64,000 nt of DNA from assembly GCA_037137555.1 (NCBI GenBank), contig JBAXKA010000002.1:3133-67132 (forward strand), given 5' to 3'. A program made the translations under genes and the position numbers. Shown one piece after another: positions 25,370 to 60,465 of the stretch (position 1 is its first letter; each line of letters begins with the position of its first letter). Source of the DNA: Candidatus Moraniibacteriota bacterium. GTDB lineage: Bacteria > Patescibacteriota > Minisyncoccia > Moranbacterales > UBA2206. The notes beneath the pieces are model-generated. The model saw only the letters and a program-made list of their open reading frames with translations, was not told where the DNA came from and ran no database searches.

Positions 25370-25370
25370 A

Positions 25371-26159: not shown

Positions 26160-26197
26160 TATTTAGATAATTAACAGTTTAAATATAGTTAAACCAT

Positions 26198-26677
26198 ATG
26201 GAACAGAAACAGGAAAATGTTGAAGGTGTGATCGTGGCAATAGTGGAAAGTTTGCTTTCTAGAATGGGTTTTTCCGCTAGCGTTGAGGCTAAGAAGGCAG
26301 AGGGTGTGGACGGTGCGATTGTTTGTGATATAAAAACAGAAGACTCTAGTTTTTTAATTGGTCAATATGGTTTAAATTTGCAATCATTGCAACATATTGC
26401 CAGAGTAATGATTCGAAAAAAGATTGTTCAACCAATTAATTTTATCCTTGATGTTAACTCTTATCGGCAAGAAAAAAATGATTCTGTTATTCGCTTAGCA
26501 AAAAACCTAGCTCAAGAAGCAATAATTGAAAAGCGTGAAATAACTATGCGGCCAATGACGGCCTATGAAAGACGCATTGTGCATATGGAATTATCGAAAA
26601 ACGATCAAATTAAATCAGAAAGCATTGGCGAGGGTGAATCTCGGCGCATCGTGATTAAGCCATTAGAAATAGTTTAG
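26198..26677 (+). CDS. jag: Jag/KhpB-like RNA-binding protein (KH + R3H)
   Basis: C-terminal R3H 'AYERRIVHMELSK' and position after yidC. Confidence 0.8.
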   Translation: MEQKQENVEGVIVAIVESLLSRMGFSASVEAKKAEGVDGAIVCDIKTEDSSFLIGQYGLNLQSLQHIARVMIRKKIVQPINFILDVNSYRQEKNDSVIRLAKNLAQEAIIEKREITMRPMTAYERRIVHMELSKNDQIKSESIGEGESRRIVIKPLEIV

Positions 26678-34731: not shown

Positions 34732-35622
34732 TTATTTGGGAAATCCGCACTTACTATTTGCTCCCCATGGCCCCCATTTTGCTCCATTATTAGAAAGCTT
34801 ACAGGCTGTTTGAATATTGCAAGCAGCGGTTGTGGCAGCGGTTACGCAACTTGCATAATTTGATTTTTGAGTACAATTATGATTAGCATTCTTACCGCCA
34901 GTATACATTGGTGCTGCGGCAGAAGTGGCACAGGTTGTTGTTGGACAGGAACTGCCACTAAGATTATGAGCAGAAAGATTTATTTGAAATAAACCAAGAG
35001 AAACAGGAAAATTATCAGGTTGACATTTGTCTCCACTTTGCTTGCTTTCTTTTCCAGAGCTTTCTCCCATACAAATCGCCGAAGCCATTGCAGCATTGTC
35101 ACCAAAGCAAGTTTTTCTAAGATTTTCAATAGAGCATGGTCCGGAAGCGGCTGGTTCGCATTTTCCTGTTCCGCTAGTGCTGCCACTGCCACTCCCGCTC
35201 CCACTACTTCCACCGGTGCTTCCACCACTACTGCTTTGTGGCAACGAAATACCTACAATATTAACCAATTCAGGATTGATAGTATAAAGAAGCACATACG
35301 AAGTGAGTGCAAGGATTAAGCCAGCAATAGCATCAAAAATAATTCCTTTAGCTTTTCCTGTGGCACTGGTATTTCCGGCACTGGTAATATACATAAAAGC
35401 ACCAACAGAAATCATCAACATCGCCGAGATGCCAACTGTCCACAAACCAAATTTATAAATTGTTAAAATATATAACTCATAGGAATCCGGCCGACCAAAT
35501 CCAGGAATTTCTTCCATTGGGGAATACTTATAAGCATCCACTGCTAATACTAAAAGAGGACTAAAAAGCAACACAAAGAAAAGTGCGATGGTTGCGATTT
35601 TTTGTTTTAGTTTAAAATTCAT
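34732..35622 (-). CDS. pilin-like (TrbC/VirB2-type helical hairpin) protein fused to a Gly/Ser linker and a Cys-rich lysozyme-like/lytic-transglycosylase-like domain
   Basis: 'MISVGAFMYITSAGNTSATGKAKGIIFDAIAGLILALTSYVLLY' hairpin. The C-terminus has 'MGESSG....VSLGLFQIN', resembling the SLT ES...GLMQI motifs. Confidence 0.5.
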   Translation of the reverse strand: MNFKLKQKIATIALFFVLLFSPLLVLAVDAYKYSPMEEIPGFGRPDSYELYILTIYKFGLWTVGISAMLMISVGAFMYITSAGNTSATGKAKGIIFDAIAGLILALTSYVLLYTINPELVNIVGISLPQSSSGGSTGGSSGSGSGSGSTSGTGKCEPAASGPCSIENLRKTCFGDNAAMASAICMGESSGKESKQSGDKCQPDNFPVSLGLFQINLSAHNLSGSSCPTTTCATSAAAPMYTGGKNANHNCTQKSNYASCVTAATTAACNIQTACKLSNNGAKWGPWGANSKCGFPK

Positions 35623-38581
35623 TGGTGTTTGTTTTGGGTAAAATAAAAAAAATAATTTTTATGGCAAGAATAATGGCGAAGCCGGAAAGAACAATGCGGA
35701 AAAGAAAAGCGATATAGTTGGGAATGCCGGAAGAAACAGTGGCAAAAATTTTCTTGGAAGAAGTTTCTTTTTGAGCTAGTGGAGCAATATCCGTCATTTC
35801 AATTTCAATATTGTGTGTCAGCTTCTTCTCATAGAATTCATTATAACTGATATTCCAATATTTGTTAAGTTGTTTTCTTATGGGATTTTCTGCTTTATAG
35901 ATAGTGGCAAAAGAAATAAGATATTTTTCGCCACTTTCTTTGGGCGGAAGGGTTAATTTTCCATAATTTTGTGTGTCGATTTTATAGCCATAAGTTGTGG
36001 CATTGTCGGCATTAATGATTACGCCGTCAATATTCCATTGATAGGGACAAGTAGATAGCCCATCTTCCTTGTCGGCATCACCATCATTATTATCACCATT
36101 AGTAAATTCTTTTTTTGCCGCTGTTCCTGAAAAATCTGGAGTTAGAACGATATCATAGCCCACTAAGGCTTGAAATTTTATTTCACTGCGATCTTCATAG
36201 TATTTGTTATCAAAATCCTGGTAGTCGCCTAGTTTAATGCCCCTGCAAGTTTGATTGCCGGAAGCATCTTTATTGTCAGTGTCCGTGGCTTTTGTGCTAT
36301 CATATTTTGGCACAATTTTTACTTCAGGAACGGTAATCTGAAAAACTTTTGTTAATTCAATTCTTTTGCCGGTTTCTTTATTGAGTGCGGACAACCCGAT
36401 CGTATATTTGTCGCCGATACCTTTGAGAATTGGAAAATAAGTGCGGTTTGTGGATTTTCCAATGTTGTCAGTAGTAGTAGTGCCATCATCAATGCATTTT
36501 TCGAATTGTTGATCTGGGCAAACTTGAGTAGCGCCATCGAGCGTCCAAAGAAACTCAGTGTATTTTTCTGTGCCAGTATTATCAAAAACTACTCCAATCA
36601 TTTCATCTTTTGCGACTTCGCAAACAGCTGCTTGTGGAAATGTTAAAGTAATTTTTCCGTCAGCGTCTTTCGTTGGAAGTGTAGTGAGGCATCTTTCTCC
36701 CGCTAGTTCGCCATCGTAGGTGCTTTCGGCTGATGGTTTTGGTGCTAGGTAAATAATTTCTGGTTCATTCGGATCTTTCGTTTTATATACTGCTGTGGCT
36801 GTATAAACCCTGAGTGTTTCCGTGGAAGAAGATATTGACAGTGTTACATCGGCATGTCCTTCTCGTTCACCACCTTCCGAAAGTGTTTCCTTGGCGGTTA
36901 CTTTTATTTTAAGATATTTTGGCAGTTTGTCTGTAGTTGTGATATCTTCAAAATCATCATCCTTAAAATTAAGATTAAATTTAAGCGTAGTTACGCCTAG
37001 TCCGGACATTTGCGTGGCGCTAATATCTTTTGGTATTTCTTTAAGTGCTATCCAATTGTCTGGATCAGCTGGATCTTCGCCAGCAAAAATTTCCCAAGTA
37101 TAATTAAGGGCATTTTCATTGGTGGGATTAGTTGTCGACGAGGTGAAAGTTACTTCATCACCGTTTTTGCTGTCGCTTGTATCATTGATGGGATTTTCTG
37201 GCAAATATTTCAGTGAGACATCTAGTTTTTCAGTTGTGCCACCACCTTCGGAAGGAGAAACAAGATTGCTTTCAAGGCAAGCATTTAAATCATTATCATC
37301 CATGCCTGTTGATCTGATTGTTATATTAGTATCGGAGCCTGTGCAGGTATATGTGGCACCGTCTTCATTTATTGTTCCGCCCTGAGTATATGTGCTTGTT
37401 GGGCAGGTTGAAGTATAATTGAATAAATCTGGTGGAATGATGGTGGTTATGAGCGTGGCCGGGTTAGTGTAGGACACAACGGTTTTAGTGATGGTCATTG
37501 TTCGGAGCATAATATTGTCATTGATTTTTGTGTCAGGAAGGGTTTTTTGCGTGGTAGTAGTTGTAACAGTGGAAGTATAGTTTGTTTCTGAGTGTTGGGT
37601 TGGTGGTGTTCCGTCTGTGTGCGTGTTTAGAAAAACTTGTGTTGTTGGACCAATTATTTTTGGATAACCAGTAGAAGGATCCATGTCCTTTGGTTCGCAA
37701 GTATTTTTGCTAAATGCCCACATTGTTCTGTATGATGAATCTGGCTCTTGGGTTGGTTGAATGGCGGCACCTTCCACAACAACACCAACTTGATCTCCAG
37801 CCGTAAAAGGAAAAGTGATTGTGTTTGCACCGAGTCCGGCAACATTAGCTTCGTCAGTATTTCCAGTGCTGGCAGTATCTTTGTTATTGGGATTAGTATG
37901 CCAAAACTGTTCTTCACTAAGACTAAATTTACCATTCGATCCGCCAGTTGTATCTCCGGGTGCATTAGGAAAAAGATGCTTGCACTCTTTTAGTTCATAG
38001 TCATCACCAGTTTTAACATTGTGCACAAAACAGTGCTCTGGTTTTCCTCGTTGATCATCACCACCAAAAACTGCTTTATAACCATCATCATCAGTATCTG
38101 CTTTATACACATCTGCTGGCGGTTGCCAAACAAAATCATCATTAGCGAGAATGCGGGCGGCTCTAACTTTATAATCTTCGATATCAACTTTGCCATTACC
38201 ATCTGAATCACATTTCGCTTTGTCCTCAGGGCAAGCGGCACCTTTAATATACCAAGTAAAATAAAGATTTTCAGTGGTGTTGATGAAATAGGTTGGCATG
38301 GCAGTGACGGTGACTTTTTCTCCCGGGACGGGATCAGCAGGATCGAAGGTGAGTGAAACCATTGGAGGATTTATTTTTCTCCTCGCAACATTAATGGTTT
38401 TCATGGTGTTTTTTAACTCATTTTTATCAACACCCAGATCGCTCATAACTGAATCTGTTACTTCGGTAGGATTTGCTAGTGAAAAAAGAGCAGCATAGGC
38501 AGGTAAGGCTGTAAGTGAGAAAATATTTAAAATAACCAAGCAGGTGATGATTATTTTTTTTAATTTTTTTTTAATTTTCAT
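35612..38581 (-). CDS. large (989 aa) Thr-rich surface protein with signal peptide and C-terminal TM anchor
   Basis: N-terminal 'LTALPAYA' signal, a Ca-binding-like 'DSDGNGKVDIEDYK', long Thr/Asn-rich segments and a C-terminal hydrophobic anchor. Confidence 0.6.
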   Translation of the reverse strand: MKIKKKLKKIIITCLVILNIFSLTALPAYAALFSLANPTEVTDSVMSDLGVDKNELKNTMKTINVARRKINPPMVSLTFDPADPVPGEKVTVTAMPTYFINTTENLYFTWYIKGAACPEDKAKCDSDGNGKVDIEDYKVRAARILANDDFVWQPPADVYKADTDDDGYKAVFGGDDQRGKPEHCFVHNVKTGDDYELKECKHLFPNAPGDTTGGSNGKFSLSEEQFWHTNPNNKDTASTGNTDEANVAGLGANTITFPFTAGDQVGVVVEGAAIQPTQEPDSSYRTMWAFSKNTCEPKDMDPSTGYPKIIGPTTQVFLNTHTDGTPPTQHSETNYTSTVTTTTTQKTLPDTKINDNIMLRTMTITKTVVSYTNPATLITTIIPPDLFNYTSTCPTSTYTQGGTINEDGATYTCTGSDTNITIRSTGMDDNDLNACLESNLVSPSEGGGTTEKLDVSLKYLPENPINDTSDSKNGDEVTFTSSTTNPTNENALNYTWEIFAGEDPADPDNWIALKEIPKDISATQMSGLGVTTLKFNLNFKDDDFEDITTTDKLPKYLKIKVTAKETLSEGGEREGHADVTLSISSSTETLRVYTATAVYKTKDPNEPEIIYLAPKPSAESTYDGELAGERCLTTLPTKDADGKITLTFPQAAVCEVAKDEMIGVVFDNTGTEKYTEFLWTLDGATQVCPDQQFEKCIDDGTTTTDNIGKSTNRTYFPILKGIGDKYTIGLSALNKETGKRIELTKVFQITVPEVKIVPKYDSTKATDTDNKDASGNQTCRGIKLGDYQDFDNKYYEDRSEIKFQALVGYDIVLTPDFSGTAAKKEFTNGDNNDGDADKEDGLSTCPYQWNIDGVIINADNATTYGYKIDTQNYGKLTLPPKESGEKYLISFATIYKAENPIRKQLNKYWNISYNEFYEKKLTHNIEIEMTDIAPLAQKETSSKKIFATVSSGIPNYIAFLFRIVLSGFAIILAIKIIFFILPKTNTNEF

Positions 38582-39249
38582 CGCGTAAGATAAATAATAT
38601 AACTATCCAAAATTATTATAGCAAAAATACTCATAAAATACGAATAGAAAAATGATTTTGTTTTGTAGGCGAGAAATCCGGCTGTGACGGAAAGCAAAAT
38701 GAAGGGAGCGGATTGCCAAGAAAAAGCATTTGTGAGAAAAAGTGTAGCAAGAAATAAGCTTGTTTGAGCGGAAATTGCCAAAGAAGCTATTTTTTTTTGA
38801 AAAAGTGAAAGAATAAAACCTTGAAAAAAATAACTAAAAATAAAAATACTTAAATTGACAATAAATAATTCATAAACTAAAAATAACCAGAAATTGTTTT
38901 TGATATAATTTGGCAAAACATAAACAGTATTGAAATCTGTATAATTAAGCATTAAATAAAAAAGCAAAAGAGTGAAGAAAAAAGTGCCTATTCCCCAGAT
39001 CAAGCCAATTGATTTATTTTTTAGATTCCAGCCAAAATCAGCCAGCTTTTTTTGGAGAATGATTTTTGTGTAAGCCACTGGCAGAAGAATAAGAAAAAAT
39101 AAATTAGCCGTTATTTTTTGGGCGGAATTTTGGGTGGGAAAAACAAGACTAAAAAAAAGGCAAAGGGCAATCACGCCAAGACTAACCAAAAATTCTCGGT
39201 CAAGCCAAGAAAGTTTTTGTTTTTTTTGTGGGTAGATTGGTTGATACAT
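38578..39249 (-). CDS. polytopic membrane protein, hypothetical
   Basis: About 6 TM helices, inside the island. Confidence 0.45.
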   Translation of the reverse strand: MYQPIYPQKKQKLSWLDREFLVSLGVIALCLFFSLVFPTQNSAQKITANLFFLILLPVAYTKIILQKKLADFGWNLKNKSIGLIWGIGTFFFTLLLFYLMLNYTDFNTVYVLPNYIKNNFWLFLVYELFIVNLSIFIFSYFFQGFILSLFQKKIASLAISAQTSLFLATLFLTNAFSWQSAPFILLSVTAGFLAYKTKSFFYSYFMSIFAIIILDSYIIYLTR

Positions 39250-39258
39250 GTGGTTTTT

Positions 39259-39795
39259 TTAATTTTCTTCTTCTTGCTCCTCGGCTTGTTCTGATTGGGT
39301 TTCTTTTCTTTCTTGTAAAATAAAAACATAAATCAAAAAAGTTGTAACGGTTTCCAGTGGCAAGAAATTCAAAATAGGAATCATCTCAAGCAGGTTGCCA
39401 AGAAAAAGGGTGATGAGTTTTTTTTTCCCAAAAAATTTTTTCACTCCCGAAACGAGCATTGCCATAATGGTCATAATGAATAGAAAAGGCGTCAAGAGTG
39501 TTCCAATAAAACCAGCATCAAAAATATCTTTAAGTCCGGACAATATAATAGTCAACAGAAAAAATATATCGATAACTTGAATAAAGCTGATCAGAGAGAC
39601 TGCTGACGAAACATCTTTAGCTATTTTTTTGGCATTTTTGGCCATTGACTTCAAACTTTTTTTGGGTTTATTGTCTTCATCAGCGGTTTTGTTCTGATCT
39701 TGTTTCTCTGCGTCTTTTTGTTCTGGTTGTTCGGCTTGTGGCGTAGATCGTTCTTGTTCTAGATTTTTTTTATGGTCGTCTTCTTCTTGAGACAT
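39259..39795 (-). CDS. membrane protein with acidic/lysine-rich N-terminal tail, hypothetical
   Basis: An N-terminal charged low-complexity region followed by 3 TM helices. Confidence 0.45.
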   Translation of the reverse strand: MSQEEDDHKKNLEQERSTPQAEQPEQKDAEKQDQNKTADEDNKPKKSLKSMAKNAKKIAKDVSSAVSLISFIQVIDIFFLLTIILSGLKDIFDAGFIGTLLTPFLFIMTIMAMLVSGVKKFFGKKKLITLFLGNLLEMIPILNFLPLETVTTFLIYVFILQERKETQSEQAEEQEEEN

Positions 39796-39806
39796 AAGGT
39801 TTAATT

Positions 39807-41657
39807 TTAAGCTTGCTCTTCTTCGCTAAATTCTTTTTTGGCTTTTTCAATATCCAAAAGTTGTGATGGATCGGTGGTGATGATTTGATCTTCAGAATAG
39901 GACGCCACAACTTTAATCGCAACATGATTTGTGCCAGCGAAAAAAATACCTTCGCCAACATTACTTTCTAGGAGCAAAAATTTCTCTTGATCAGTCAAAT
40001 AGAAAGTATCGGAAATAACATCAATACCGGCTGGAGATTGTTTTAATAATAATTGCAAAGAAGAATTGGTCACAATTGCTTTGCCATAACGAGAAGACAA
40101 AAAGTCATTAACATCTTGCGTAATAGTTGTGAGGCCAGTGAAATATTTGCGACAACGCTTAGCAAGACCAAACAAAAATGAAGCGGCGTCTTCATATTTC
40201 ATCATAACCCAAGCTTCATCAACCAGAACAATGCGTTTTTTTACATTAGTGCGCATTTCATTCCAAACAAATTGTAGGATAATATACATCGCCACTGGAC
40301 GCAATTCTTCTTCCATATCGCGGATATTAAAAACAACGAGCTGGTTATCAACTTTAATGTTTGTGGCGTGATTGAGAAAGCCAGCAAAAATTCCTTCCGT
40401 ATATTTTTCCAAACGAACTGCTAAAACTTCTCCGCCGTCCAGACTACGCAAAACTTGATAGAGATCAGACATTGTGGGAAAAGCATCTTTTCCCAGTGTG
40501 TTGAAATCGGCTTCGGCTGTTATGTCTTTGATGCTGTATGTTTCATGAATAGCCCGATCCAAAACAGAATCTTCTTCTGGTGTAATTGATCCGAGCATAA
40601 TATGCAAAAGTCCCAAAAGATTGGCAATATTATTACGCAATATATCTTCCGGATCGTCATCTTCACCAACGCGAGGAAGATCAAAAGGATTGAGATGGCT
40701 GTTGGAATTGAGTGAAATTTTAATAAAAGTGCCTTCGATCGTCTCGCAAAGATGTTTATATTCATTTTCCGGATCAATAATAATCACATCAGTGCCGATC
40801 ATAATTGAACGCAAAACTTCCAGCTTGACAGTATAACTTTTTCCAGCACCAGATTTAGCAAAAACAACCATGTTGGCATTTTCCATTTGAAAACGATCAA
40901 AAATAATCAAACTATTATTGTGGCGATTGACGCCATATAAAATTCCCGTGTTAGATGAAAGCGTCGATGAAACAAACGGAAAGGTTGTGGAAAGTGGAGA
41001 ACTATTCATATTCATTCCCACATCTAATTCGTCATTAGCGAGAGGCAAACAAGAATTAAAACCTTGTTCGGATTTAAAAACGGCTGGTTTGACATAGATC
41101 AATTGAGCTTCAAGAATGGCTTCGATGCTTTTGATGCTTTTCGTTACGGCCTGTTCACTGTCGCCATAAGCGGTGATATAAAGTGAAAAACGAAAGAATT
41201 TTTCTGTGCCTTGTTGCAACTTATCTCGCAGTTCATCAATATCTTGTTGGGCAGTTTCCAAAGAAGGATCACGAATTAAACCTTTGCTTTGTTCGATTTG
41301 GATTTGCGATTCAACTTGCGTAGCACTTTTTTTGAGCGTTTTCAAGATATCATAAGTATCCACTGGATGGATAAACATAGAAATATCAATTGGCATATCA
41401 ATATTGATGATTGGAGAAAACCAATTGCTGTGCAAATATCTCGGATAAGCAATAATAAAAATTGTTTGGGCGATTGTTTCCCCGATGCGAATGGATTTTG
41501 GCATAATTTGAATGGCAGCGGGAGCAATAATATCATTGAGTCTGGCAAGGCCTTCTTGATAATATTTTTCTGATTCCAAAACGCTATCTTGCGGAGGAGC
41601 AATTTTTTTTTCCGAAGCGATATCAGTCGCATCTTTTTTGGCGAAAGGGTTGAGCAT
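39807..41657 (-). CDS. virB4: VirB4/TrbE/CagE-like type IV secretion ATPase, ATPase portion
   Basis: Walker A 'FAKSGAGKSYTV', Walker B-like 'RIVLVDEAW' and overall VirB4 C-terminal domain architecture. Confidence 0.8.
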   Translation of the reverse strand: MLNPFAKKDATDIASEKKIAPPQDSVLESEKYYQEGLARLNDIIAPAAIQIMPKSIRIGETIAQTIFIIAYPRYLHSNWFSPIINIDMPIDISMFIHPVDTYDILKTLKKSATQVESQIQIEQSKGLIRDPSLETAQQDIDELRDKLQQGTEKFFRFSLYITAYGDSEQAVTKSIKSIEAILEAQLIYVKPAVFKSEQGFNSCLPLANDELDVGMNMNSSPLSTTFPFVSSTLSSNTGILYGVNRHNNSLIIFDRFQMENANMVVFAKSGAGKSYTVKLEVLRSIMIGTDVIIIDPENEYKHLCETIEGTFIKISLNSNSHLNPFDLPRVGEDDDPEDILRNNIANLLGLLHIMLGSITPEEDSVLDRAIHETYSIKDITAEADFNTLGKDAFPTMSDLYQVLRSLDGGEVLAVRLEKYTEGIFAGFLNHATNIKVDNQLVVFNIRDMEEELRPVAMYIILQFVWNEMRTNVKKRIVLVDEAWVMMKYEDAASFLFGLAKRCRKYFTGLTTITQDVNDFLSSRYGKAIVTNSSLQLLLKQSPAGIDVISDTFYLTDQEKFLLLESNVGEGIFFAGTNHVAIKVVASYSEDQIITTDPSQLLDIEKAKKEFSEEEQA

Positions 41658-41682
41658 ATTTTTAAGCTTATTTTTTTTAAAT

Positions 41683-42369
41683 TTATTTTAGTTCCATTTT
41701 TTCTGTGTCGATATAGCCCTTAGTATCAAAGACTGTTGGGTTATAGGCATTGAATAATAATTCAATCAATTCTGGTGTTTTGAGTGGGGCGATGCGAACT
41801 CCAATGCCAGAAAGTCCGGCCGTGAGATGATCAACTCTTTGAAAAATTTGGCTCTTGTAGGTTTCAAAATTTTCTCTTTTTTCTAGAATATTTCTCTTGG
41901 GATTGAGCATGCTGGAAAAATTACTGAAAAAACTTTTTTCTTGATTTTCAATTGGAGCAAATGGCACAACTAAATAAAAAGTTTTGTCCATAATGTCAGA
42001 CATAGAAACCAATTGAGTGATAAAATTTTTATATTCAGAAATTTGCAAACGCATCAATTCGGTTTTTTGTTGTTTTTCTTTTTCGGTTAAAAACTCCACA
42101 TAAGAATCAATATTTAATTTTCGTGAGCTGATGAGGATTTGCAGGGGAAAATCAACCGAGTTGAGAAAATTTTGATATTGACTAATGATGGCTTCTTGTT
42201 CGTCAGTCGCTTTCAATTCAAAATTGATAGCAGAAACTTCCAGCACCGCCCGTAGCGATCCATTTTTGAGAACAATTACATCTTCTTTGACTTCCGCGAC
42301 ATCCAAATATTGTTGTGTTGGTGAAGCGGCTGCTTGTTTGGCGAGTTTTTGTGAATAAAGTTTTTCCAT
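41683..42369 (-). CDS. VirB4-like N-terminal domain encoded as a separate ORF
   Basis: 'VIVLKNGSLRAVLEVSAINFELKATDEQEAI' resembles the VirB4/TraC N-terminal region. It ends 25 nt upstream of the ATPase ORF, in a different frame. Confidence 0.55.
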   Translation of the reverse strand: MEKLYSQKLAKQAAASPTQQYLDVAEVKEDVIVLKNGSLRAVLEVSAINFELKATDEQEAIISQYQNFLNSVDFPLQILISSRKLNIDSYVEFLTEKEKQQKTELMRLQISEYKNFITQLVSMSDIMDKTFYLVVPFAPIENQEKSFFSNFSSMLNPKRNILEKRENFETYKSQIFQRVDHLTAGLSGIGVRIAPLKTPELIELLFNAYNPTVFDTKGYIDTEKMELK

Positions 42370-42373
42370 AGTT

Positions 42374-42769
42374 TTATTTTAGTCTTGTGTCTAATAATTT
42401 GGAAACATCAGCGACTCGTTGTGAATCAAATCGCTTTTTTTCAATTACAGGTATTGAAACTTGTTTGACGGCATCTCGTTGAATTTTTTCTGGTGTGCGA
42501 TGCCAAAGATATCTTTTTGGTCGAGTGGCAAACATAACAGATGAAATAATAAATTTAATCAGTGGTTGATTGTATGGTCGATAAAAAGCCAGTGAGCCAA
42601 AAATTAAACCAACAATGATAGCGGAAATAACAAAAGCGGATTGATCAAAAAGTCCATAGCAGAATAATAAAATAACGGCTCCGGCTGCGAGCCAGCCGAG
42701 TTGTTTGGCGGTGAGTGGTCCGACAATTTTATCTTCAATATCAATAAATTGGGGAACGCTGAAGATCAT
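42374..42769 (-). CDS. PrgI/VirB3-like small membrane protein
   Basis: 'IVGPLTAKQLGWLAAGAV' followed by two TM helices, positioned immediately upstream of VirB4 as in Gram-positive T4SS. Confidence 0.6.
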   Translation of the reverse strand: MIFSVPQFIDIEDKIVGPLTAKQLGWLAAGAVILLFCYGLFDQSAFVISAIIVGLIFGSLAFYRPYNQPLIKFIISSVMFATRPKRYLWHRTPEKIQRDAVKQVSIPVIEKKRFDSQRVADVSKLLDTRLK

Positions 42770-42793
42770 AAGCTTTATTTAAAAAATATTTTT

Positions 42794-44008
42794 TTATTCC
42801 TCTCTTAAGTCTAACACATTTTTGGGAACTTGTCTCGGAGCAGAATAATTTATGCGAGCAACTGGCAAGCGGGAGGGATAATTTTTTTGAATTGGTTGGA
42901 TTGTTTGCGGAATTTCCGGTGGTTTTTCAGTGGATAATGTTTGCGGTGAAGAAAAATGAATGTTGCTGGTGGTGTTTTCAATTTTGTTTTCAGCTATATT
43001 TTTATTTTCCAGTATTTCTTTTTGGGGCAAGTCTCTTCTCCAGGCACTGATGCGATCTTCATCAGATTGAAATTTTTGTTGTGGTTGAGAAACTTTTTGG
43101 GTGGGATAATAATTTTCTTGACCGCGTCGGATTTCGGCTGGTTCCAGTTCATTATTGCGAAAATTAGGTCTAAATGGCGGTCTTTTTAGTGCTTGTGGTT
43201 GAGCAATAACTTTTTTTTCTGGCAAACTAAAAAGGACTTGTTTGGTGACAGTATTCACTGTGAGCGGAATATTATTTTCAAGAGAATCAATAATAATAGT
43301 TAATTTTTCACGATCAGTTTCTGAAAGTGTGCGAGTGTTTTCATTTTTGAAAAGATAATTTCCTCGCACGATTGGATCGTGGTTGCTGATGCCAACAGTA
43401 AAAGTGTAATCAGAAAGCCAATTTTTAATCGATGGTCGCACTGGTTCAGGAAAAATTTTCAATTTAATGTGTGCCGAAGTGATCAACTGTTCACCAAGCG
43501 CCGCATATTTTTCGATAGCGATTGAGATGGGGAGTTTTTCGAGTTGAGCTTGTTGTTTTTTTAATGTTTCTTCTTCTTTTCTTCGTTCTTGTGCTTTTTC
43601 TTTTTCTTCTTCCATGATCCATGGTTCTAATTCTAGAACTTTTTTCCACGCTTCATCTTCAGAAAGTAACGGAGCTGATTTTTTCTTTGACCATTCTTCG
43701 AGCAAGCCTTGTGCATCTTTGAAAAAATCGGGAAAACGAGCATAAATTCGATTGTTTATTTCATACGAAATACCAAAAATAATTTGCTCGGCTTGTTTCA
43801 AGTCTTTGGCGATTATTGCTGGATAATCTTTTAGTTTTATTTCGTCGATGAAAATAAGGGCGATTGGACTAGACAAAAAAGCAACAAAATTTTCTTCTAG
43901 CCCATACATAAAACAAACTTTTTCAACTTCAAAATACGGGATATCTGATGAAAGAAAATCTTGTAATATTTTCGGCAGTTTACTTTTTTTCTCTAAATAA
44001 TTATTCAT
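42794..44008 (-). CDS. hypothetical protein (coiled-coil, Gln/Pro-rich C-terminus)
   Basis: 404 aa, no TM helix, Lys/Glu-rich central region. Confidence 0.45.
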   Translation of the reverse strand: MNNYLEKKSKLPKILQDFLSSDIPYFEVEKVCFMYGLEENFVAFLSSPIALIFIDEIKLKDYPAIIAKDLKQAEQIIFGISYEINNRIYARFPDFFKDAQGLLEEWSKKKSAPLLSEDEAWKKVLELEPWIMEEEKEKAQERRKEEETLKKQQAQLEKLPISIAIEKYAALGEQLITSAHIKLKIFPEPVRPSIKNWLSDYTFTVGISNHDPIVRGNYLFKNENTRTLSETDREKLTIIIDSLENNIPLTVNTVTKQVLFSLPEKKVIAQPQALKRPPFRPNFRNNELEPAEIRRGQENYYPTQKVSQPQQKFQSDEDRISAWRRDLPQKEILENKNIAENKIENTTSNIHFSSPQTLSTEKPPEIPQTIQPIQKNYPSRLPVARINYSAPRQVPKNVLDLREE

Positions 44009-44028
44009 TGTAGATGTGAAAAAAATAA

Positions 44029-46299
44029 TTAGGTCCTATGGCGTAGGTCTGGATCCCCGTTCGCTCTTGCAAGATTTTTTGCCCCTCTTGTTCCAGCATT
44101 AGGATTAGCTAATGCAGTGGCGTTAGTTCTTATGGCAGTAAATAATGCAGATTGAGCTACTCCATCGTTGGCATTAATAATATCTTTTATTTTACTAGGA
44201 TCTAGATTGTTGGCGAACTCAGCCATTAGACCTGCATTGTTGGTTGTGGTTGTATCCATTCTTTTTGCTGTATCACCATTAAATCTTTGCATGAGATAAG
44301 CCCTCGTGGCAACATCATTTGCGCTATTAGAGGAAATACCAGCATGAAATGTTCCGGTTTGAGCAAAATGTGCTGTTTGAACTCTTGTGGCTGTTTGAAG
44401 CTGATCATCAAGAGCTAGCCATGCAGCACTTCCTTTTGTTTCTAAATTTCTCAATGCATTGATTCCCGAGATATTTTGTAGGTCAGGAGCGCTGGCTGCG
44501 TTGTCAAGAGAAGCGGCGATCGCTCTTGTATAAGCAGGGCCTTTCTTCCTTGCTTTTTCCAAGTCATCGTTACTAAGAGCTCCAGTTCTAAGTCCAATAT
44601 CCATTACCCTATCGTTTCTAAGTGCATCAGCACCTAATTTATCAGGATTAAAATTGTCGCTTTGCATGTAGCGCGTTAATCCTGCTTCATCAAGAACGCC
44701 ATTGTGCGTGAAAACAGCTTCAGGGGCAGAGGCCTTCATTTTGCTTTCTAATTGCCTAGTTACTTGACTGTCATTGCCAAATTGTTGACGCACATTATTC
44801 AATTGTGCTCCTGTTGCTAAGCCTCTTGCTGCGAGTTCTATTGTAGCAGCTGCTCTTTCAAATTTATTTCCTGATGTAGCCAATAGCTCCAAGTCTAAAT
44901 CTTCTGCTGTTGCGACAGCATTTTGCTCTCCTGCCTTTTTCATTTTTGCTGCTTGATCAGATTCATACCGCAATCTCGCATCTGTCCCACCAATAATTTT
45001 TCCTCGCAAGCGATCTTGTTGACTTCCCAAATTTCCGCCAAGTTTATTTGCCCAAGAATCTTCTTTGGCTTTGGCTCTTCTTGAGCTATAAGCTTTGTGA
45101 GTGTCTTTGATAAATTGTCCACCACTCACTTTCATACCAACATTCTTCATCAACTTCGTCCCCGCACCCACCACCGCTTTCGCCCCATGAATTCCCGACT
45201 CTTGTGCTTTGATGATGCCGAGCCAAAGAATGATGATTGGGATTGCGAAAAAAGAAGCGGAGGCAATAAATTTTCCAAGCGTATCTCCGAAACCACCTTG
45301 ACCAGCAACGGTTTGTAGTCCAGCTATTTTTTTCATACTTCCGCCGGAATCAGAAATGGCTATAATCATTTGCGTGGCAACATAAAGCATAAAAACCATA
45401 ATCGGCCCGGCGAAACATTGTTGCATAAAATCTTTCCACCATTTGCTTCCAGCTTCAGCTAATGCTGTGCCGGGTAGAATTGATCCTACAAAAGCAATTG
45501 GGGAAAAAATAACATAAACAGCAAGCGTGATTGTTCGGATAACCAAGAGAACAGCAATGATGAGTAGTGTGATAGCGAAAATAAAAGTAAAAATAACTAC
45601 AGACAAAAGAAAAAGAGTATCCGTATTTTCGGTGGTAGGTGCAAAAATTTGATCAAGACCGCTCGCATCAATAATTGTCATAAAAGAATTTGATCCGCCG
45701 ATTTTTCCGAGGAAGCCATACATCATCATATTTGATGCATCAATAATAAAACGGGCAATGGGATAGCTGAAATTGACAAGCAGTGCCATGATGACAAGAT
45801 TGAGTAAAACTTTTTTGTAATTAAAGTTGGCAGCGGATTGAAAAATTGTAGCAAAGGCGGAAAACAAAAGCACCATAATAAAAGCGACATTAAAAACATC
45901 GCGAACGGTGCGCCATATTTGATAGATAATTTTATTGTCAATCACCGCCTTCATATTAGTTGGATTGACAATCCATTGAAATATTGTTTCAGCTAGTGAA
46001 AGAAGAAAGCCCGTGAATTTTAGTGCCAGCTTGAGAATTGGAATGATAATATATTTTTCTCCCCATGTTACTGACGAATCACCAGCAATCTCCGTATTTG
46101 TTTTTATTTGCTCAGGGGCTGTTGATCCGAGTTCTGCAGATGAATTGTCTCCAGAAAAAACATTAGCAGAAATTATCTTGGTGGAACTTATAAACGGCAA
46201 AATAAACGCAACAAAAAAAATCGCTAACAAAATTGTTTGTTTGTTTTTTTGAAAAAAAGTATTAACCTTTTTTTGTTTTAGCTTTGAGAAAAAAAACAT
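44029..46299 (-). CDS. VirB6/TrbL-like polytopic membrane protein with long C-terminal hydrophilic extension
   Basis: Signal/TM, then at least 6 TM helices, then a ~330-aa Ala/Gln/Asn-rich tail. It lies next to VirB3/VirB4-like genes. Confidence 0.5.
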   Translation of the reverse strand: MFFFSKLKQKKVNTFFQKNKQTILLAIFFVAFILPFISSTKIISANVFSGDNSSAELGSTAPEQIKTNTEIAGDSSVTWGEKYIIIPILKLALKFTGFLLSLAETIFQWIVNPTNMKAVIDNKIIYQIWRTVRDVFNVAFIMVLLFSAFATIFQSAANFNYKKVLLNLVIMALLVNFSYPIARFIIDASNMMMYGFLGKIGGSNSFMTIIDASGLDQIFAPTTENTDTLFLLSVVIFTFIFAITLLIIAVLLVIRTITLAVYVIFSPIAFVGSILPGTALAEAGSKWWKDFMQQCFAGPIMVFMLYVATQMIIAISDSGGSMKKIAGLQTVAGQGGFGDTLGKFIASASFFAIPIIILWLGIIKAQESGIHGAKAVVGAGTKLMKNVGMKVSGGQFIKDTHKAYSSRRAKAKEDSWANKLGGNLGSQQDRLRGKIIGGTDARLRYESDQAAKMKKAGEQNAVATAEDLDLELLATSGNKFERAAATIELAARGLATGAQLNNVRQQFGNDSQVTRQLESKMKASAPEAVFTHNGVLDEAGLTRYMQSDNFNPDKLGADALRNDRVMDIGLRTGALSNDDLEKARKKGPAYTRAIAASLDNAASAPDLQNISGINALRNLETKGSAAWLALDDQLQTATRVQTAHFAQTGTFHAGISSNSANDVATRAYLMQRFNGDTAKRMDTTTTNNAGLMAEFANNLDPSKIKDIINANDGVAQSALFTAIRTNATALANPNAGTRGAKNLARANGDPDLRHRT

Positions 46300-46301
46300 A
46301 A

Positions 46302-47327
46302 TTATTTTTTATATAATGCACCTGGGCCATAAGCGTTGACTTTTTTGTTGACTTGATTAACGGCTTTGTCTGTTACTTTATTAACTTCTTTGTTGATTTT
46401 ATTTTCTACACCAGAAATTGTTTTGTTCACGGCTCCGGCAATGGCCTTGGAAACAGTGGCAGCCACTAATTCGCCAATACTTGTGGCACTGGAAATGGCT
46501 AGGTTTGGTAGATTCTCCATATTTGCTTCCATTTCTTTATATAATATACCAGGCTTTGCGATCATGCCGTCGATTTTTTCACTAAGAAATCCTCCACCAG
46601 CAATACCTTCAGCTGTGGCTGTGGCTTTTTCCTTGGCAAGAGCTGTGTTGTATTCTGCTCTGATAGCTGAATCGGCATCCCAGATTGTATTGCCTCCATT
46701 GCCATCACCCATTAAGTAGAGATTCATATTGGCAAGCGAATCACTTTGAAACATTTCAGCTGGATCTCCGTCGTAACTTAATCGCCATTCTTTTGGTTCA
46801 GTTATATTTTCTCCCAATGTTTGAATATTTTCAGAGAGACTGCTACTGGTAATGTCAGCTGCATCATCGCCCAAGACAGCGCCTCTGCCAAAACCTTCAC
46901 CGGCAATGGTGCTGGCGCCGAGGACAGAATTAGAGGCTTTTTTATAATTAACACTACCTCTGCCAGAAGTAAGGCGACTAATATAGTCGTTGGCATAGTT
47001 TGTGGCATTTCTTTTAGGATTATTGACCAAATAATCTTCCCAGTTGGTAATAAATCTGGCGCCATTGCCACCGACACCGGAAATAAAACGATCCATTTGT
47101 TTGGAAAGCATTTTGATGGCGGCTTGTTTCAATGATCCCATCATCATGCCCTTGATTGAATAGGAAATTTCTGCTACGACTGTTTCATAGACAGAAGCAG
47201 CCATTGCATCCCAGGCTTGAGCTTTTTTAGGACAGGAAAAAGAAAATAAGATTAATAAAAAAATAAAAAAACCAGAAATAATTTTTTGGGAAAAATAAAC
47301 TTTTTGTTTTAGTGGGTTTTTTTGCAT
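46302..47327 (-). CDS. exported hypothetical protein
   Basis: Signal peptide. The C-terminus has a repetitive 'VNK..' region. Confidence 0.45.
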   Translation of the reverse strand: MQKNPLKQKVYFSQKIISGFFIFLLILFSFSCPKKAQAWDAMAASVYETVVAEISYSIKGMMMGSLKQAAIKMLSKQMDRFISGVGGNGARFITNWEDYLVNNPKRNATNYANDYISRLTSGRGSVNYKKASNSVLGASTIAGEGFGRGAVLGDDAADITSSSLSENIQTLGENITEPKEWRLSYDGDPAEMFQSDSLANMNLYLMGDGNGGNTIWDADSAIRAEYNTALAKEKATATAEGIAGGGFLSEKIDGMIAKPGILYKEMEANMENLPNLAISSATSIGELVAATVSKAIAGAVNKTISGVENKINKEVNKVTDKAVNQVNKKVNAYGPGALYKK

Positions 47328-54360: not shown

Positions 54361-54747
54361 TTAAAGTGCTTCAATATGTTTAATCTTAGCTCGTCTCGTT
54401 TCAAGATTAATCCAAAGTGCGATGATATCAAAGCGATAAGCTTGATCAGTGAGATCGTTTTGTTTTAAATAGAAATAGGCGATCTTATTTAATTTTTGCA
54501 ACTTGCGGTAGTCAACATTTTCTTCAGGATTTGTGTCTTTAAATTTTTGCATCGTTCTGGCTTTGACTTCCACGAAAACTAATTCAGATTTTTTCAAATC
54601 GCGAGCGATGATATCAATTTCTCCCAGTCGTTGACCGCTTGTGTTGGCATAATTAAGGGCAATTATTTTGTAGCCTTTTTGTTTGAGGTAATTAGCGGAA
54701 ATAGTTTCGCCTAAATTGCCCAATGTTTTTTTTGTGGTTAGTGTCAT
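54361..54747 (-). CDS. yraN: YraN/UPF0102 family endonuclease
   Basis: 'LGETISANYLKQKGYKIIALNY...GEIDIIA....LVFVEVKAR' pattern. The ORF extends to 54867, but only by reading through an upstream terminator, so the start is placed at the internal ATG (54747). Confidence 0.75.
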   Translation of the reverse strand: MTLTTKKTLGNLGETISANYLKQKGYKIIALNYANTSGQRLGEIDIIARDLKKSELVFVEVKARTMQKFKDTNPEENVDYRKLQKLNKIAYFYLKQNDLTDQAYRFDIIALWINLETRRAKIKHIEAL

Positions 54748-54772
54748 TTGCGAAGTATAGCAAACTTTTTTT

Positions 54773-54805
54773 AAAAAACAAAAAAACACCCTTTCTTTGG
54801 TGTTT
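54773..54805 (-). terminator. intrinsic terminator (minus strand)
   Basis: Minus-strand transcript: stem AAACACC / GGTGTTT, an 8-nt loop, then a U-run of at least 7, ending 26 nt before the yraN start. Confidence 0.6.
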
Positions 54806-55285
54806 ATGTATACTAATTCTCTCCCTGATTCCTTTGAGGTATGGAAACCAGGGCGTTCGACGCCCAATAAAAAAATAAATTTGGCTGAACGCCCCAGTGT
54901 TTGTCATATACTAACAGGTTATGCGGAAACGATTTAGTCGGGTGAGAGACATCGTCGTTATAACAAGCCTGTATTTTATGCGTATGACTCAAGTTTATCT
55001 CCAGTCTGATTGTTGAAGATGTTGTTTTACCATTCTCTGGTGAATTTTCACCTTTGAATGTGAAGGTACAATGCTAGACGATGCTAGCGTTTTTTATTTT
55101 TTGTTTTTATATTTTTACAAAAAATTTTGTTTTTATTTTGGGGTCTCTGATATCAGAAATCAGAGCGGCTATCGCTCGTTGGCGATAACACTTGAACAGT
55201 AAAACAATTTTCAATCACAGATGAATGACTAACTGTGATTGAAAATTGTTTTACCGTTCTGATTTGCAAGTTTTTAATGTTCAAT
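54773..55285 (-). ncRNA. candidate ~500-nt non-coding RNA of unknown class
   Basis: Consensus sigma70 promoter TTGACT-17nt-TATAAT upstream. Contains a 21-bp perfect hairpin (55200..55253) and a stable GGGCG-UCGAA-CGCCC hairpin, ends at an intrinsic terminator, and has no ORF longer than 13 aa that does not read through the terminator. RNase P (GGAAAGUCCGGG) and tmRNA (5' GGGG / 3' CCA) signatures are absent. Confidence 0.35.
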
Positions 55286-55291
55286 ATATTT

Positions 55292-55320
55292 ATTATAGCA
55301 GTAAAAAAGTTTCGAGTCAA
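55292..55320 (-). promoter_or_regulatory. near-consensus sigma70 promoter (TTGACT -35, 17-nt spacer, TATAAT -10)
   Basis: Plus-strand agtcaa at 55315..55320 and attata at 55292..55297, reverse-complemented. Confidence 0.55.
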
Positions 55321-55454: not shown

Positions 55455-56762
55455 TTATTCGAGTGGATTATTAGCAGGATCCATGGTTATGATTGGCGCT
55501 GTTTCTGTTTGTGTGTTTTTTGTTGTCATATTTAGTCGATCAATCATTGACCACATAGTTAATTTTGTTGTCCCGATGATTAACTTGTTTTGATAGATAG
55601 CATAATCAACCGAGAGCATGTCAGGAGAGATTATATTTTGAAAGCGAATTTTTGCATCGCCGTATTTATTATCGGAAAATAGCATGTCGGCTTTGTAGGT
55701 AGAAGTGAAAAAAAGTGATTCGATTTGCTTGGCTAATGTTTTTTCTTCTCGCAGAAGAGTTTTATTAGTAGTTAAGTTATTTTTCAATTCAATTGCTAAG
55801 CCAGTTTTTGGACCAGTGGAGTCATTATAAATATAAAAGCTAAAATTATCTCCCAATGAATTTGCGATTCCAGTGGAAAAGTTTAATTTAAATAGCCCTG
55901 AAAAAGCCTTGAAAGTAAGCGGTTTGTTTTGAATATCAGTTATAATAAATTCGACTGGTTTTGTGTAGCCTTCTTTGGTAACTTTTTCCATAGCAACTTT
56001 TATGTCAGTGGCAATTAAATTTCCATCTTCTATGCGAAGATAGTTGGGAGTGGTTTCGGAATAAGTTAAAATTGGCTTTGGTGCTGGCTCGATGATAACG
56101 GGTATTTCTACTGGTGGTGTTGGTTCGGCTATTACGATAGGTTCTTGAATAGCAATGGGTCTATTTTTTATAAAATAAAAACCAGTGGCTGATATAGCGA
56201 GCAATAAAACAAAAGAAAGGCTGGAAAATAAAATAAATTGTCTGTTGGATTTTGTTGGGAGAATATTTTTTGGTAAAGGTTGTTCGACATTTTTTGGCAG
56301 AGGTGGGTTGACATTTTTTGGTAATGGCGGAGCTATATTTCTAGCAGGAATGATTATCGGCATAACTTTTTCTGGTTTTTCTACAGTTTTTGTTTCAATT
56401 TTAGCAGAAATAAGATTGCTTTTTTCTTTTTGAGGTACTATATTTGCGTTGAAAGTATTCAATGGCCTTGGAGCTTCTGGTTTTTTTATTTCTTTTTCTT
56501 CAAGTAGTGTTCTTTTATGCCAAGAATCCTCATCACTAATCATAACGGGATTTATTTTCTGCTGTTGGTTTAAATCTGATTGGGTATTTTTTTGTTTTTC
56601 TATGCTTTGTTGAGCATTGGGATTTTTTAATTTTTCTAAGTCATCTTGCATCGTATGAATGGGAGTGTCTTCTAATACGAAATTTTTTGGTTGAACTTGA
56701 CCAGGAATATTATTTTTGTTTTCTTCTTGTTTTTGAATAGGTTTTTTTGTGAGACCAAACAT
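55455..56762 (-). CDS. hypothetical membrane-anchored protein with tandem proline-rich 'PPLPKN' repeats
   Basis: 'NIAPPLPKNVNPPLPKNVEQPLPKNILP' followed by a TM helix and a 230-aa C-terminal domain. Confidence 0.5.
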   Translation of the reverse strand: MFGLTKKPIQKQEENKNNIPGQVQPKNFVLEDTPIHTMQDDLEKLKNPNAQQSIEKQKNTQSDLNQQQKINPVMISDEDSWHKRTLLEEKEIKKPEAPRPLNTFNANIVPQKEKSNLISAKIETKTVEKPEKVMPIIIPARNIAPPLPKNVNPPLPKNVEQPLPKNILPTKSNRQFILFSSLSFVLLLAISATGFYFIKNRPIAIQEPIVIAEPTPPVEIPVIIEPAPKPILTYSETTPNYLRIEDGNLIATDIKVAMEKVTKEGYTKPVEFIITDIQNKPLTFKAFSGLFKLNFSTGIANSLGDNFSFYIYNDSTGPKTGLAIELKNNLTTNKTLLREEKTLAKQIESLFFTSTYKADMLFSDNKYGDAKIRFQNIISPDMLSVDYAIYQNKLIIGTTKLTMWSMIDRLNMTTKNTQTETAPIITMDPANNPLE

Positions 56763-59891: not shown

Positions 59892-60389
59892 TTAAATTAA
59901 AAACTTTTTCTTATTTTCACTTAAATTTATAAAGCTATCTAATTCTTCAACTAGTTTATTGCTGGTTGATTCCATAAAAGCTGCGCCTTCTACGCGACAA
60001 CCAGTGGTTGATTGAATGTATTTAACAAGTGGAATATAGTCGCCGTCTCCAGAAACCAAAACGATTGCATCAAGTGTTTTGGACATTTTAATTGCATCAA
60101 CGGCAATTCCCACATCCCAATCGCCTTTTTTGGCTCCACCGGGAAAAATTTGCAAATCTTTTGTTTTAACTTCATAGCCAACTTTTTCCAGAGCTTCAAA
60201 AAATTTTTCTTCTTGACCTTCGAGAGTTTTGATGCCATAAGCAATAGCCCGAATCAATTTGCGATCGCCTACTGCAGATTTTAAAACTTGATCAAAATTA
60301 ACTTTTTTCTGATAAAGCACTTTGGCACTATAATAAAGATTTTGAATATCAACTAAAACGCCAATCCGTTGTTCTTTGTATATGCTCAT
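59892..60389 (-). CDS. NYN/LabA-like (PIN-fold) domain protein
   Basis: 'IGVLVDIQNLYYS' and 'IVLVSGDGDYIPLV' LabA/NYN signatures. The start is set at the internal ATG. Confidence 0.7.
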   Translation of the reverse strand: MSIYKEQRIGVLVDIQNLYYSAKVLYQKKVNFDQVLKSAVGDRKLIRAIAYGIKTLEGQEEKFFEALEKVGYEVKTKDLQIFPGGAKKGDWDVGIAVDAIKMSKTLDAIVLVSGDGDYIPLVKYIQSTTGCRVEGAAFMESTSNKLVEELDSFINLSENKKKFLI

Positions 60390-60465
60390 AGTTTTTTGTT
60401 TATTTGTTAGATACTTTTTACAGTGAAAAAAAGCAAAATGCGGAAACATTTTGCTTTTGGCTTAA

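Follow-up and report, generated by a model that had tools for sequence, protein, structure and literature searches.

Large, highly structured RNAs of bacteria fall into only about a dozen known classes, and nearly all of those whose function has been solved carry out fundamental biochemistry: the ribosome, RNase P, transfer-messenger RNA (tmRNA), the signal recognition particle (SRP), and group I and group II introns. Among the large classes, OLE, GOLLD, ROOL and the raiA motif RNA are stand-alone, lineage-restricted genes with their own promoter and terminator that were found by comparative genomics. They span several hundred nucleotides and combine many covarying helices with invariant unpaired nucleotides. 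Bacteria of the Candidate Phyla Radiation (CPR) account for much of bacterial diversity and have tiny genomes, unusual ribosomes and unusual RNase P RNAs. Their non-coding RNAs are almost undescribed. Here we describe a locus upstream of yraN on the minus strand of a 64,000-nucleotide stretch of a metagenome-assembled Candidatus Moraniibacteriota genome from the CPR/Parcubacteria group (contig JBAXKA010000002.1; the whole stretch is referred to as the window, and all positions are positions in it). An interval of about 510 nt, roughly 55285..54773, is very probably a gene in its own right, encoding a stable and highly structured non-coding RNA (ncRNA) that founds a new family. It resembles OLE, GOLLD, ROOL and raiA in each of the respects listed above.

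Promoter, terminator and conservation of the locus

An earlier note on this DNA had placed a TTGACT-17-TATAAT promoter on the minus strand, about 500 nt with no credible open reading frame (ORF) behind it and a canonical terminator at 54773..54805. All three were recovered. The promoter (55320..55292, minus strand) consists of a -35 element TTGACT at 55320..55315, a 17-nt spacer and an extended -10 element TGcTATAAT at 55300..55292, and the site scanner gave it an 11/12 consensus match. Promoter-like sites in the region occurred at chance level (12 found, 13 expected), and this one was judged real because it is conserved. The RNA gene has a conserved, near-consensus sigma-70-type promoter of its own, with a predicted transcription start at about 55285.

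The terminator, AAACACC-AAAGAAAG-GGUGUUU, was also called by the scanner. Its hairpin covers 54805..54784 and its U-run continues to 54773. Seven terminator-like sites were found in the region against 2.2 expected. Among relatives the stem covaried (GCACC/GGUGU, AGCC/GGCU, GCCCCG/CGGGG), and a U-run followed it in all homologues. Between promoter and terminator the GC content was 0.37-0.40, above that of the flanking AT-rich genes. No ORF was conserved among 84 homologues, in which the longest ORFs varied in strand and position. A small-protein reading was dropped, as no ORF was kept in strand, frame or position.

Homologous loci were taken from GTDB species genomes through an alignment of YraN homologues, which gave 80 loci. 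The region, which the earlier note had allowed might prove not to be conserved, was kept in 74 of these related genomes, with promoter, RNA and terminator at the same syntenic position. A TTGAC-N16-19-TAnAAT promoter lay 500-700 nt upstream of yraN in 74/80 loci, and the same architecture was seen in metagenome homologues. The RNA measured 436-656 nt from promoter to terminator among homologues. By blastn the intergenic DNA matched almost all 80 loci, at 68-80% identity over two blocks (55320-55090 and 54980-54835), and this identity persisted where YraN was only about 50% identical. All 74 genomes carrying the RNA were Moranbacteria or unclassified Patescibacteria. A GC-richer subfamily (loci L183, L191, L201, L182, L157, L147 and L151) had YraN relatives that were also labelled Moranbacteria. 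Judged by these homologues, the family occurs throughout the CPR lineage Candidatus Moranbacteria. When metagenomes were scanned with the invariant 16-mer of the first hairpin loop (H1, below), at least 120 stretches matched; among the matches listed, the full hairpin context was present in 48 metagenome contigs and the rest were chance 16-mers. A phage origin was set aside, as all 19 IMG/VR matches to the 16-mer were chance matches without the hairpin.

No known RNA family was identified by the Rfam search that the earlier note had proposed. Rfam 15 (4227 families) was searched with the 64-kb window at the gathering cut-off and with the region at two looser limits, E ≤ 1 and E ≤ 10. Thirteen divergent homologues were searched at E ≤ 1, and the GC-richer homologue L201 at E ≤ 10. 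At the gathering cut-off no family was matched in the window, and at E ≤ 1 there was no match on the RNA in the 13 divergent homologues. At E ≤ 10, the searches of 54760..55300 and of L201, listed to about 12 bits, returned only microRNA-type matches on the long hairpin and chance-level matches. The models of large ncRNA classes, OLE, GOLLD, ROOL, HEARO and raiA among them, gave no match. ARAGORN reported neither tRNA nor tmRNA in the 64-kb window. A literature search on ncRNAs of CPR, Patescibacteria, Parcubacteria and Moranbacteria and on RNA motifs linked to yraN turned up no account of this RNA, and the family is previously uncatalogued. An unannotated ncRNA, one of the explanations that the note had offered, is strongly supported: the locus is conserved and covaries, it keeps its promoter and terminator, and nothing in Rfam matches it.

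Covariation model and proposed architecture

The minimum free energy (MFE) of the RNA was -147.7 kcal/mol, compared with -93.5 ± 5.7 for shuffled sequences (z = -9.6), in keeping with the description of the region as highly structured. Two alignments of homologues were used: A2, made with MAFFT (84 sequences), and a separate alignment of our own (74 sequences). On A2 a model of 98 base pairs had 83.1% of cells paired, compared with 37-46% when the partners were slid, and a covariation score of 0.347 compared with 0.07-0.11. Changes on both sides were seen in 83 of the 98 pairs. None of 500 shuffles attained any of the observed measures. In the 74-sequence alignment the highest ranks of an APC-corrected G-test went to helices of familiar appearance, in which several types of Watson-Crick pair occurred. 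Compensatory pairs exceeded the controls and no ORF was conserved, the two outcomes that a generic test for structured ncRNA looks for. G-U pairs were abundant in conserved helices (for example 202:259, G-U in 75/84 sequences), and the functional strand is therefore the minus strand, on which all elements below are given. The strongest support was for H1, H2, H7a, H7c, H8 and a kissing loop. H3, H5b, H9 and the terminator scored lower in the MAFFT alignment and showed clear compensatory variants on direct reading.

The most prominent element is H1, a 27-bp hairpin with one G-U pair (55259..55194) and a 12-nt loop (55232..55221), present in the fold and supported by covariation. It had been described as a perfect 21-bp stem with a 12-nt loop; the hairpin and loop are there, and the stem is longer than was stated. 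In A2 92.6% of its cells were paired and 21 of the 27 pairs showed double changes. The apical stem and loop were invariant in sequence in nearly all relatives (UCAAUCRCAA-UUUCCCCCUAU-UUGYGAUUGA). In the window's own genome the loop (55221..55232) reads UUAGUCAUUCAU (L001/L002) and not the family's UUUCCCCCUAU, with the rest of the RNA intact. L068 and L081 also depart from the family loop.

The 3' strand of lower H1 has a second partner. A long-range helix (LR) of 14 pairs joins UUGUUUUACUGUUC at 55194..55207, which doubles as the 3' strand of lower H1, to GAAUGGUAAAACAA at 55022..55035, which follows an invariant CCAGAG (55040..55035). The LR 3' strand is nearly identical to the 5' strand of lower H1, GAACGGUAAAACAA, and tracks its sequence. 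LR was 87% paired, with double changes in 10/14 pairs; lower H1 covaried too (for example 204:257, U-A 51 / C-G 33). The two outermost LR pairs were C-G in 84/84 sequences and U-A in 57 or C-G in 25 (82/84 kept), and their counterparts in H1 were unpaired in 42/84 and 29/84. LR is thus constrained in its own right and does not simply echo H1, because its outer pairs are kept where those of H1 fail. Since lower H1 and LR use the same nucleotides, the two are mutually exclusive. The GC-richer subfamily has an equivalent helix, CUUCCCCAU/GUGGGGAGG, formed from 9 nt directly 3' of H1, with compensations in each member; in L201 it can run into the H1 3' strand to give 16 bp.

LR closes a multi-helix junction of H2, H3, H4 and H5, which the kissing loop ties to the 3' part of the RNA. 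The kissing partners are the loop of H3 (UCUGAU, 55157..55152; consensus UCUGAY) and the loop of H5b (AUCAGA, 55010..55005; consensus RUCAGA). Their pairs were 98% paired (349:687 was G-C in 57 and A-U in 20), in three complementary variants: UCUGAU/AUCAGA, UCUAAC/GUUAGA and UCUGAC/GUCAGA. In L046 and L052 H5b was deleted and the H3 loop motif replaced, so that both partners were gone together.

Within the junction, H2 (55168..55189; GUUAUCGC / GCGAUAGC with a conserved CAACG loop) was supported by covariation. It was 93.9% paired with double changes in 8/8 pairs, which were among the top pairs of the G-test. H3 (CUCUGAU / AUCAGAG, 55145..55165) was poorly aligned in A2 (59% paired) and showed compensatory variants by eye. 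A single-stranded tract, GACCC-AAAAYAAAAACAAAA, follows at 55125..55145, with (ARN)n-like A-rich repeats and invariant A columns in the consensus. In H4 (55097..55124) a U-rich strand, UUUUUUGU, pairs with the distal part of a second A-rich tract, ACAAAAAA, around an A-rich loop. H4 was present in the MFE fold and weak in the MAFFT alignment (71% paired), and had lineage-specific compensations (CAUUUUC/GAAAAUG, UUUUACU/AGUAAAA, CUUUUUC/GAAAAAG, AACUUUUU/AAAAAGUU). H5 is a small hairpin, GGUG-AAAAUU-CACC (55039..55052), supported by covariation (228:234, C-G/U-A); its loop is a GAAA tetraloop in many relatives, and a conserved GUUCUUU...CAAAGG precedes it. The H5b hairpin occupies 54997..55020.

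The 3' part holds an arm of H6, H7 and H8 (54903..54988), in which H6 pairs 54988..54983 with 54908..54903, H7a pairs 54972..54968 with 54918..54914, H7c pairs 54959..54955 with 54932..54928, and H8 (54950..54937) carries a near-invariant loop, CUCACCC. The arm was 78-95% paired in A2 with double changes in every pair, and was present in the MFE fold. It includes a conserved junction, AUAAAAUAC (54979..54971), and a second one, AUGACAAACAC, lies at 54897..54907 in the consensus. In H9 (54851..54894) the lower stem is GGGCGUUC / GAACGCCC, GCCAAAU..AUUGGGC forms the upper one, and the loop is AU-rich. It appeared in the centroid fold and was 72% paired in A2, where the alignment is imperfect; compensatory variants included GCGGGCUC/GAGCCCGU, GUGCGUUC/GAGCGCAC and GGGCGCUUC/GAAGCGCCC. 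The earlier note had read GGGCG-UCGAA-CGCCC (54865..54851) as a hairpin of its own; that sequence exists, and covariation pairs its CGCCC with GGGCGUUC (54894..54887) in H9 instead. A conserved 3' motif, GGUUUCCAUACC (54838..54849), is followed by a variable region (54837..54806) that runs up to the terminator. At the other end, the alignments of 74 and 84 sequences both gave a conserved 5' leader motif, UGAACAUUAAAAAC (55270..55283), for which no partner was identified. Pairing of the leader with the 3' tail or with the GUUC motifs was rejected, as compensations were only sporadic.

Lineage-specific insertion hairpins of about 60-70 nt, resembling expansion segments, were seen at two fixed points of the RNA. 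One point lies after the first A-rich tract (A2 columns ~395-455; L005, L008, L010, L011, L021, L025, L032, L047, L067, L093) and the other between GUUCUUU and CAAAGG (A2 columns ~557-622; L013-L020 and related loci). In a clade of four loci (L049, L053, L055, L056) the H8 loop CUCACCC is now AUAAAAUUC, GACCC is lost and the terminator is GCCCCG..CGGGG; the C-rich elements look as if they had changed in co-ordination there.

The RNA has at least 13 helices with tertiary contacts. Together with the strong, constitutive-looking promoter, the discrete terminator and conservation across the order in reduced genomes, these point to an abundant, stable RNA whose function relies on its three-dimensional fold. 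Such an RNA would act in trans; we favour an RNP (ribonucleoprotein) scaffold, or possibly a catalytic or sequestering RNA. The likely binding surfaces would be the invariant unpaired elements: UUUCCCCCUAU, CUCACCC, GACCC with the (ARN)n-like tract, CCAGAG, AUAAAAUAC, AUGACAAACAC and GGUUUCCAUACC. Neither covariation nor complementarity gave internal partners for the C-rich elements (the H1 loop, GACCC and the H8 loop), and partners in trans, G-rich RNA or protein, are therefore likely. The H8 loop CUCACCC shares UCACC with the 3' end of 16S rRNA.

On balance we lean slightly towards a new class of large, tertiary-structured RNA in Moranbacteria, about as complex as OLE, ROOL or RNase P RNA, which would serve as a ribozyme or as the core of an RNP and be gated by a conformational or processing switch between H1 and LR. 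In the covariation model H1 is followed by a 5' domain of H2, H3, H4 and H5, which LR closes and the H3-H5b kissing contact ties to the 3' part; the 3' domain comprises the H6-H7-H8 arm, H9 and the conserved tail. As a specific mechanism we suggest, tentatively, that H1 folds first during transcription and is then displaced or cut, a perfect duplex of 22-27 bp being a typical RNase III substrate, after which LR would lock the mature fold.

Evidence against the proposed reading and alternative explanations

Several observations weigh against our reading of the locus. Nearest-neighbour energies put full H1 ahead of the LR state, on average by about 9 kcal/mol, so that LR would need tertiary contacts, a protein, or cleavage or strand removal of H1. 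The replaced H1 loop in the window's genome means that the loop is dispensable or that its partner has changed. No partner protein or RNA of the RNA was identified. The ends and the abundance of the transcript are read from signals in the sequence. The syntenic block around the RNA (below) means that adjacency to yraN says little about function. Lastly, the window holds rnpA (25022..25369, PF00825, E = 3e-23), and no RNase P RNA was detected in its 64 kb. RNase P RNAs of CPR bacteria are divergent, in some cases without P12, and can score below Rfam cut-offs, so that thresholds down to 5 bits were needed to find them (PMC8172020). A very aberrant RNase P RNA therefore keeps a low probability here.

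These last points favour an extremely diverged housekeeping RNA, with RNase P RNA (rnpB) as the main candidate and tmRNA or 6S RNA less likely. The rnpA gene stands in a cluster with yidC (PF02096) and jag/khpB (KH and R3H domains) at 25022..26677 on the plus strand. Because rnpA is present, the organism has the protein subunit of an RNA-based RNase P, and an RNase P RNA must exist in it. The size of the RNA and its strong, conserved promoter would also suit a stable housekeeping RNA. An invariant stretch, CCAGAGAAUGGUAAAAC, may be loosely like CR-II (ACAGAGA) fused to CR-III (GGUAAAC).

Against this explanation, neither RNase P, tmRNA nor 6S models matched a low-GC or a GC-richer member at E ≤ 10 with listing to about 12 bits; the RNase P models RF00010 and RF00011 gave no match at the gathering cut-off in the window or at E ≤ 10 in 54760..55300 and L201. 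The stretch resembling CR-II/III is paired here in the covarying LR, whereas in RNase P the two form unpaired T-loops. The P4 pair, GGAAAGUCC (CR-I) with ACAGAA..GGCUUA (CR-V), was absent from the family consensus when the motifs were compared by eye. No closing P1 helix between the 5' and 3' ends was seen in covariation scans or in the fold, and the ACAAAC junction was not kept in the GC-richer subfamily (UAACGCC). Manual fits to RNase P (CR-I to CR-V, P4 and P1) failed; the sole likeness, CAGAGA..GGUAAA, sits within a covarying helix. Recognisable type-A RNase P RNAs were reported by Lui et al. in all 35 circular CPR genomes (PMC8172020), which also speaks against an aberrant form.

The other housekeeping RNAs fared no better. 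For tmRNA there was no tRNA-like end and no CCA, ARAGORN was blank, and no model of the tmRNA clan matched. Indels occur in the A-rich tract, so there is no conserved tag reading frame, and the T-arm-like GGGCG-UCGAA-CGCCC is part of H9. Manual fits to a tRNA-like domain, a tag frame or a permuted tmRNA also failed. The earlier note had recognised neither the P4 sequence of RNase P RNA nor the GGGG and CCA ends of tmRNA, and Rfam and ARAGORN bear it out. A 6S RNA measures about 180 nt (with a rod of about 150-240 nt) against 436-656 nt here, and the fold has nothing like the end-to-end rod and central bubble of 6S. Its ends are left unpaired, the duplex of H1 is perfect and carries no bubble, and RF00013 did not match. 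SRP RNA (4.5S/ffs) had no Rfam match in the window, the region or L201. Parcubacteria reportedly have neither ffh nor ffs (PMC4508563). We consider a diverged housekeeping RNA unlikely.

A second possibility is that the RNA is a long cis-acting leader, attenuator or riboswitch controlling read-through into yraN-dksA-lspA-comM. In its favour, the RNA lies directly upstream of yraN (54747..54361, minus strand, PF02021) on the same strand in nearly all members, its terminator ends 26 nt before the yraN ATG, and mutually exclusive pairings such as lower H1 and LR are found in riboswitch expression platforms. However, the alternative pairing lies about 400 nt upstream of the terminator, which takes no part in it. 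A single candidate antiterminator came up, the H8 loop CUCACCC pairing through CACCC with GGGUG in the low-GC clade. It was rejected, since the loop is invariant where the terminator is AGCC..GGCU or GCCCCG..CGGGG and the pairing is not kept. The terminator itself appears constitutive and covaries as an ordinary hairpin. The size of the RNA and the number of its invariant elements are also far above those of known leaders.

yraN, moreover, has a predicted promoter of its own. An extended -10 element, TGcTATACT, stands at 54762..54754 on the minus strand, 6 nt before the ATG (54747..54745; consensus tg.Tataat..a..tAtg), outside the RNA. The element (TGnTATAAT/TATACT) was found 6-8 nt before the ATG in every subfamily (L003-L082, L157, L164, L183, L191, L201). 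No Shine-Dalgarno sequence precedes yraN, and its -35 region overlaps the U-run of the RNA terminator. Because the -10 element is only 6-8 nt before the ATG, the yraN mRNA of this clade is probably leaderless or near-leaderless and made from its own promoter; because yraN has this element, the RNA is better read as an independent gene than as a yraN leader. In the most divergent subfamily (L164/L144), the YraN-like ORF of L164 is about 200 aa long as translated, with about 75 extra residues behind the YraN-like portion that look acidic and coiled-coil-like by eye.

Adjacency to yraN is a matter of clade-wide synteny, in which pnp, a gene for a 435-aa hypothetical protein, the RNA, yraN, a dksA/traR-type gene, lspA and comM are kept as one block. 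A specific functional link to yraN was dropped for this reason. The 435-aa protein (55455..56762, minus strand) is encoded directly upstream of the RNA, together with pnp; it showed 27-57% identity, occupied the same position in 76/82 fetched loci and had no Pfam match. Some members have no yraN in the downstream sequence available (1.7-4 kb in L110, L111 and L166), and L151 has tRNA genes there instead. The attenuator or riboregulatory leader put forward in the earlier note is thus very unlikely.

The remaining alternative is a composite interval, made up of unrelated elements or of a sense/antisense pair: a small hairpin RNA, a separate RNA at the 3' end, and an antisense transcript that ends at a terminator-like site on the plus strand. 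It could draw on that site, a plus-strand hairpin with a T-run called by the scanner at 55070..55091, on weak plus-strand promoter-like sites and on the sequence-conserved apical hairpin of H1, which could be released as a small RNA. It is extremely improbable, since the covarying kissing loop and LR connect the 5' part with the 3' part, the kissing partners have disappeared jointly, no internal promoter is conserved within the RNA, and the G-U pairs, which fix the minus strand, would become A-C mismatches on the plus strand. The plus-strand site is an insertion hairpin, GCUAGCAUCGUCUAGC (GCUAGC..GCUAGC; 55073..55088, minus strand), seen in reverse complement; the hairpin lies beside an A-rich run, is lineage-specific and was absent from the close relatives L006, L012 and L044. 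The terminator-like hairpin of the earlier note is real as sequence and not conserved as a site, and the sense/antisense pair is not supported.

Other genes in the window and comparison with known RNAs

Elsewhere in the window, a run of large genes on the minus strand (34732..47327) holds several ORFs of 600-1000 aa alongside genes for a lysozyme-like SLT_3 protein (34732..35622) and a protein of the PrgI family (42374..42769); two mid-size ORFs of the run that were scanned (38578..39249 and 41683..42369) had no Pfam match. The run is possibly a cluster for type IV secretion or a conjugation-like system. A NYN-domain protein, a predicted RNase, is encoded at 59892..60449 (minus strand), just upstream of the pnp region, and an N6/N4 DNA methylase at 9043..9876 (plus strand).

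An RNA that genome-reduced CPR bacteria have kept, strong promoter included, at a single locus throughout an order is very likely important to the cells. The covariation model, with its kissing loop and two mutually exclusive helices, makes it amenable to comparative and structural study.

Smaller regulatory RNAs offer partial likenesses. The AAAAYAAAAAC repeats fit the (ARN)n pattern of CrcZ and CrcY, the Hfq/Crc sponges; a CrcZ match on the A-rich tract of L201 scored 12.3 bits, at chance level (gathering score 95 bits). As in RsaE/RoxS-type small RNAs, C-rich loops are exposed and might base-pair with G-rich sequences of the Shine-Dalgarno kind. Unlike these RNAs, the Moranbacteria RNA is far larger and has a conserved tertiary architecture, and there was no evidence for Hfq or for targets.

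Similar to type-A RNase P RNA, the Moranbacteria RNA combines comparable size and stability with long-range pairings and invariant junction nucleotides, and rnpA lies in the same window. It differs in domain order and has neither the CR-I/CR-V P4 pseudoknot nor P1. In the cotranscriptional strand displacement of E. coli SRP RNA an early 5' hairpin likewise shares a strand with a later long-range helix, and in the RNase III processing of rRNA and B. subtilis scRNA precursors a long perfect duplex is likewise a typical substrate. In contrast to these RNAs, both alternative pairings covary here across a whole bacterial order.

The large ncRNA classes with which we began are also among the closest counterparts. 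OLE is accompanied by oapA, oapB and oapC, and no associated protein genes are evident at the Moranbacteria RNA. Compared with OLE, GOLLD, ROOL and raiA, this RNA is set apart by its CPR host, the Moranbacteria, by a 27-bp 5' hairpin that competes with LR, and by its long (ARN)n-like tracts.

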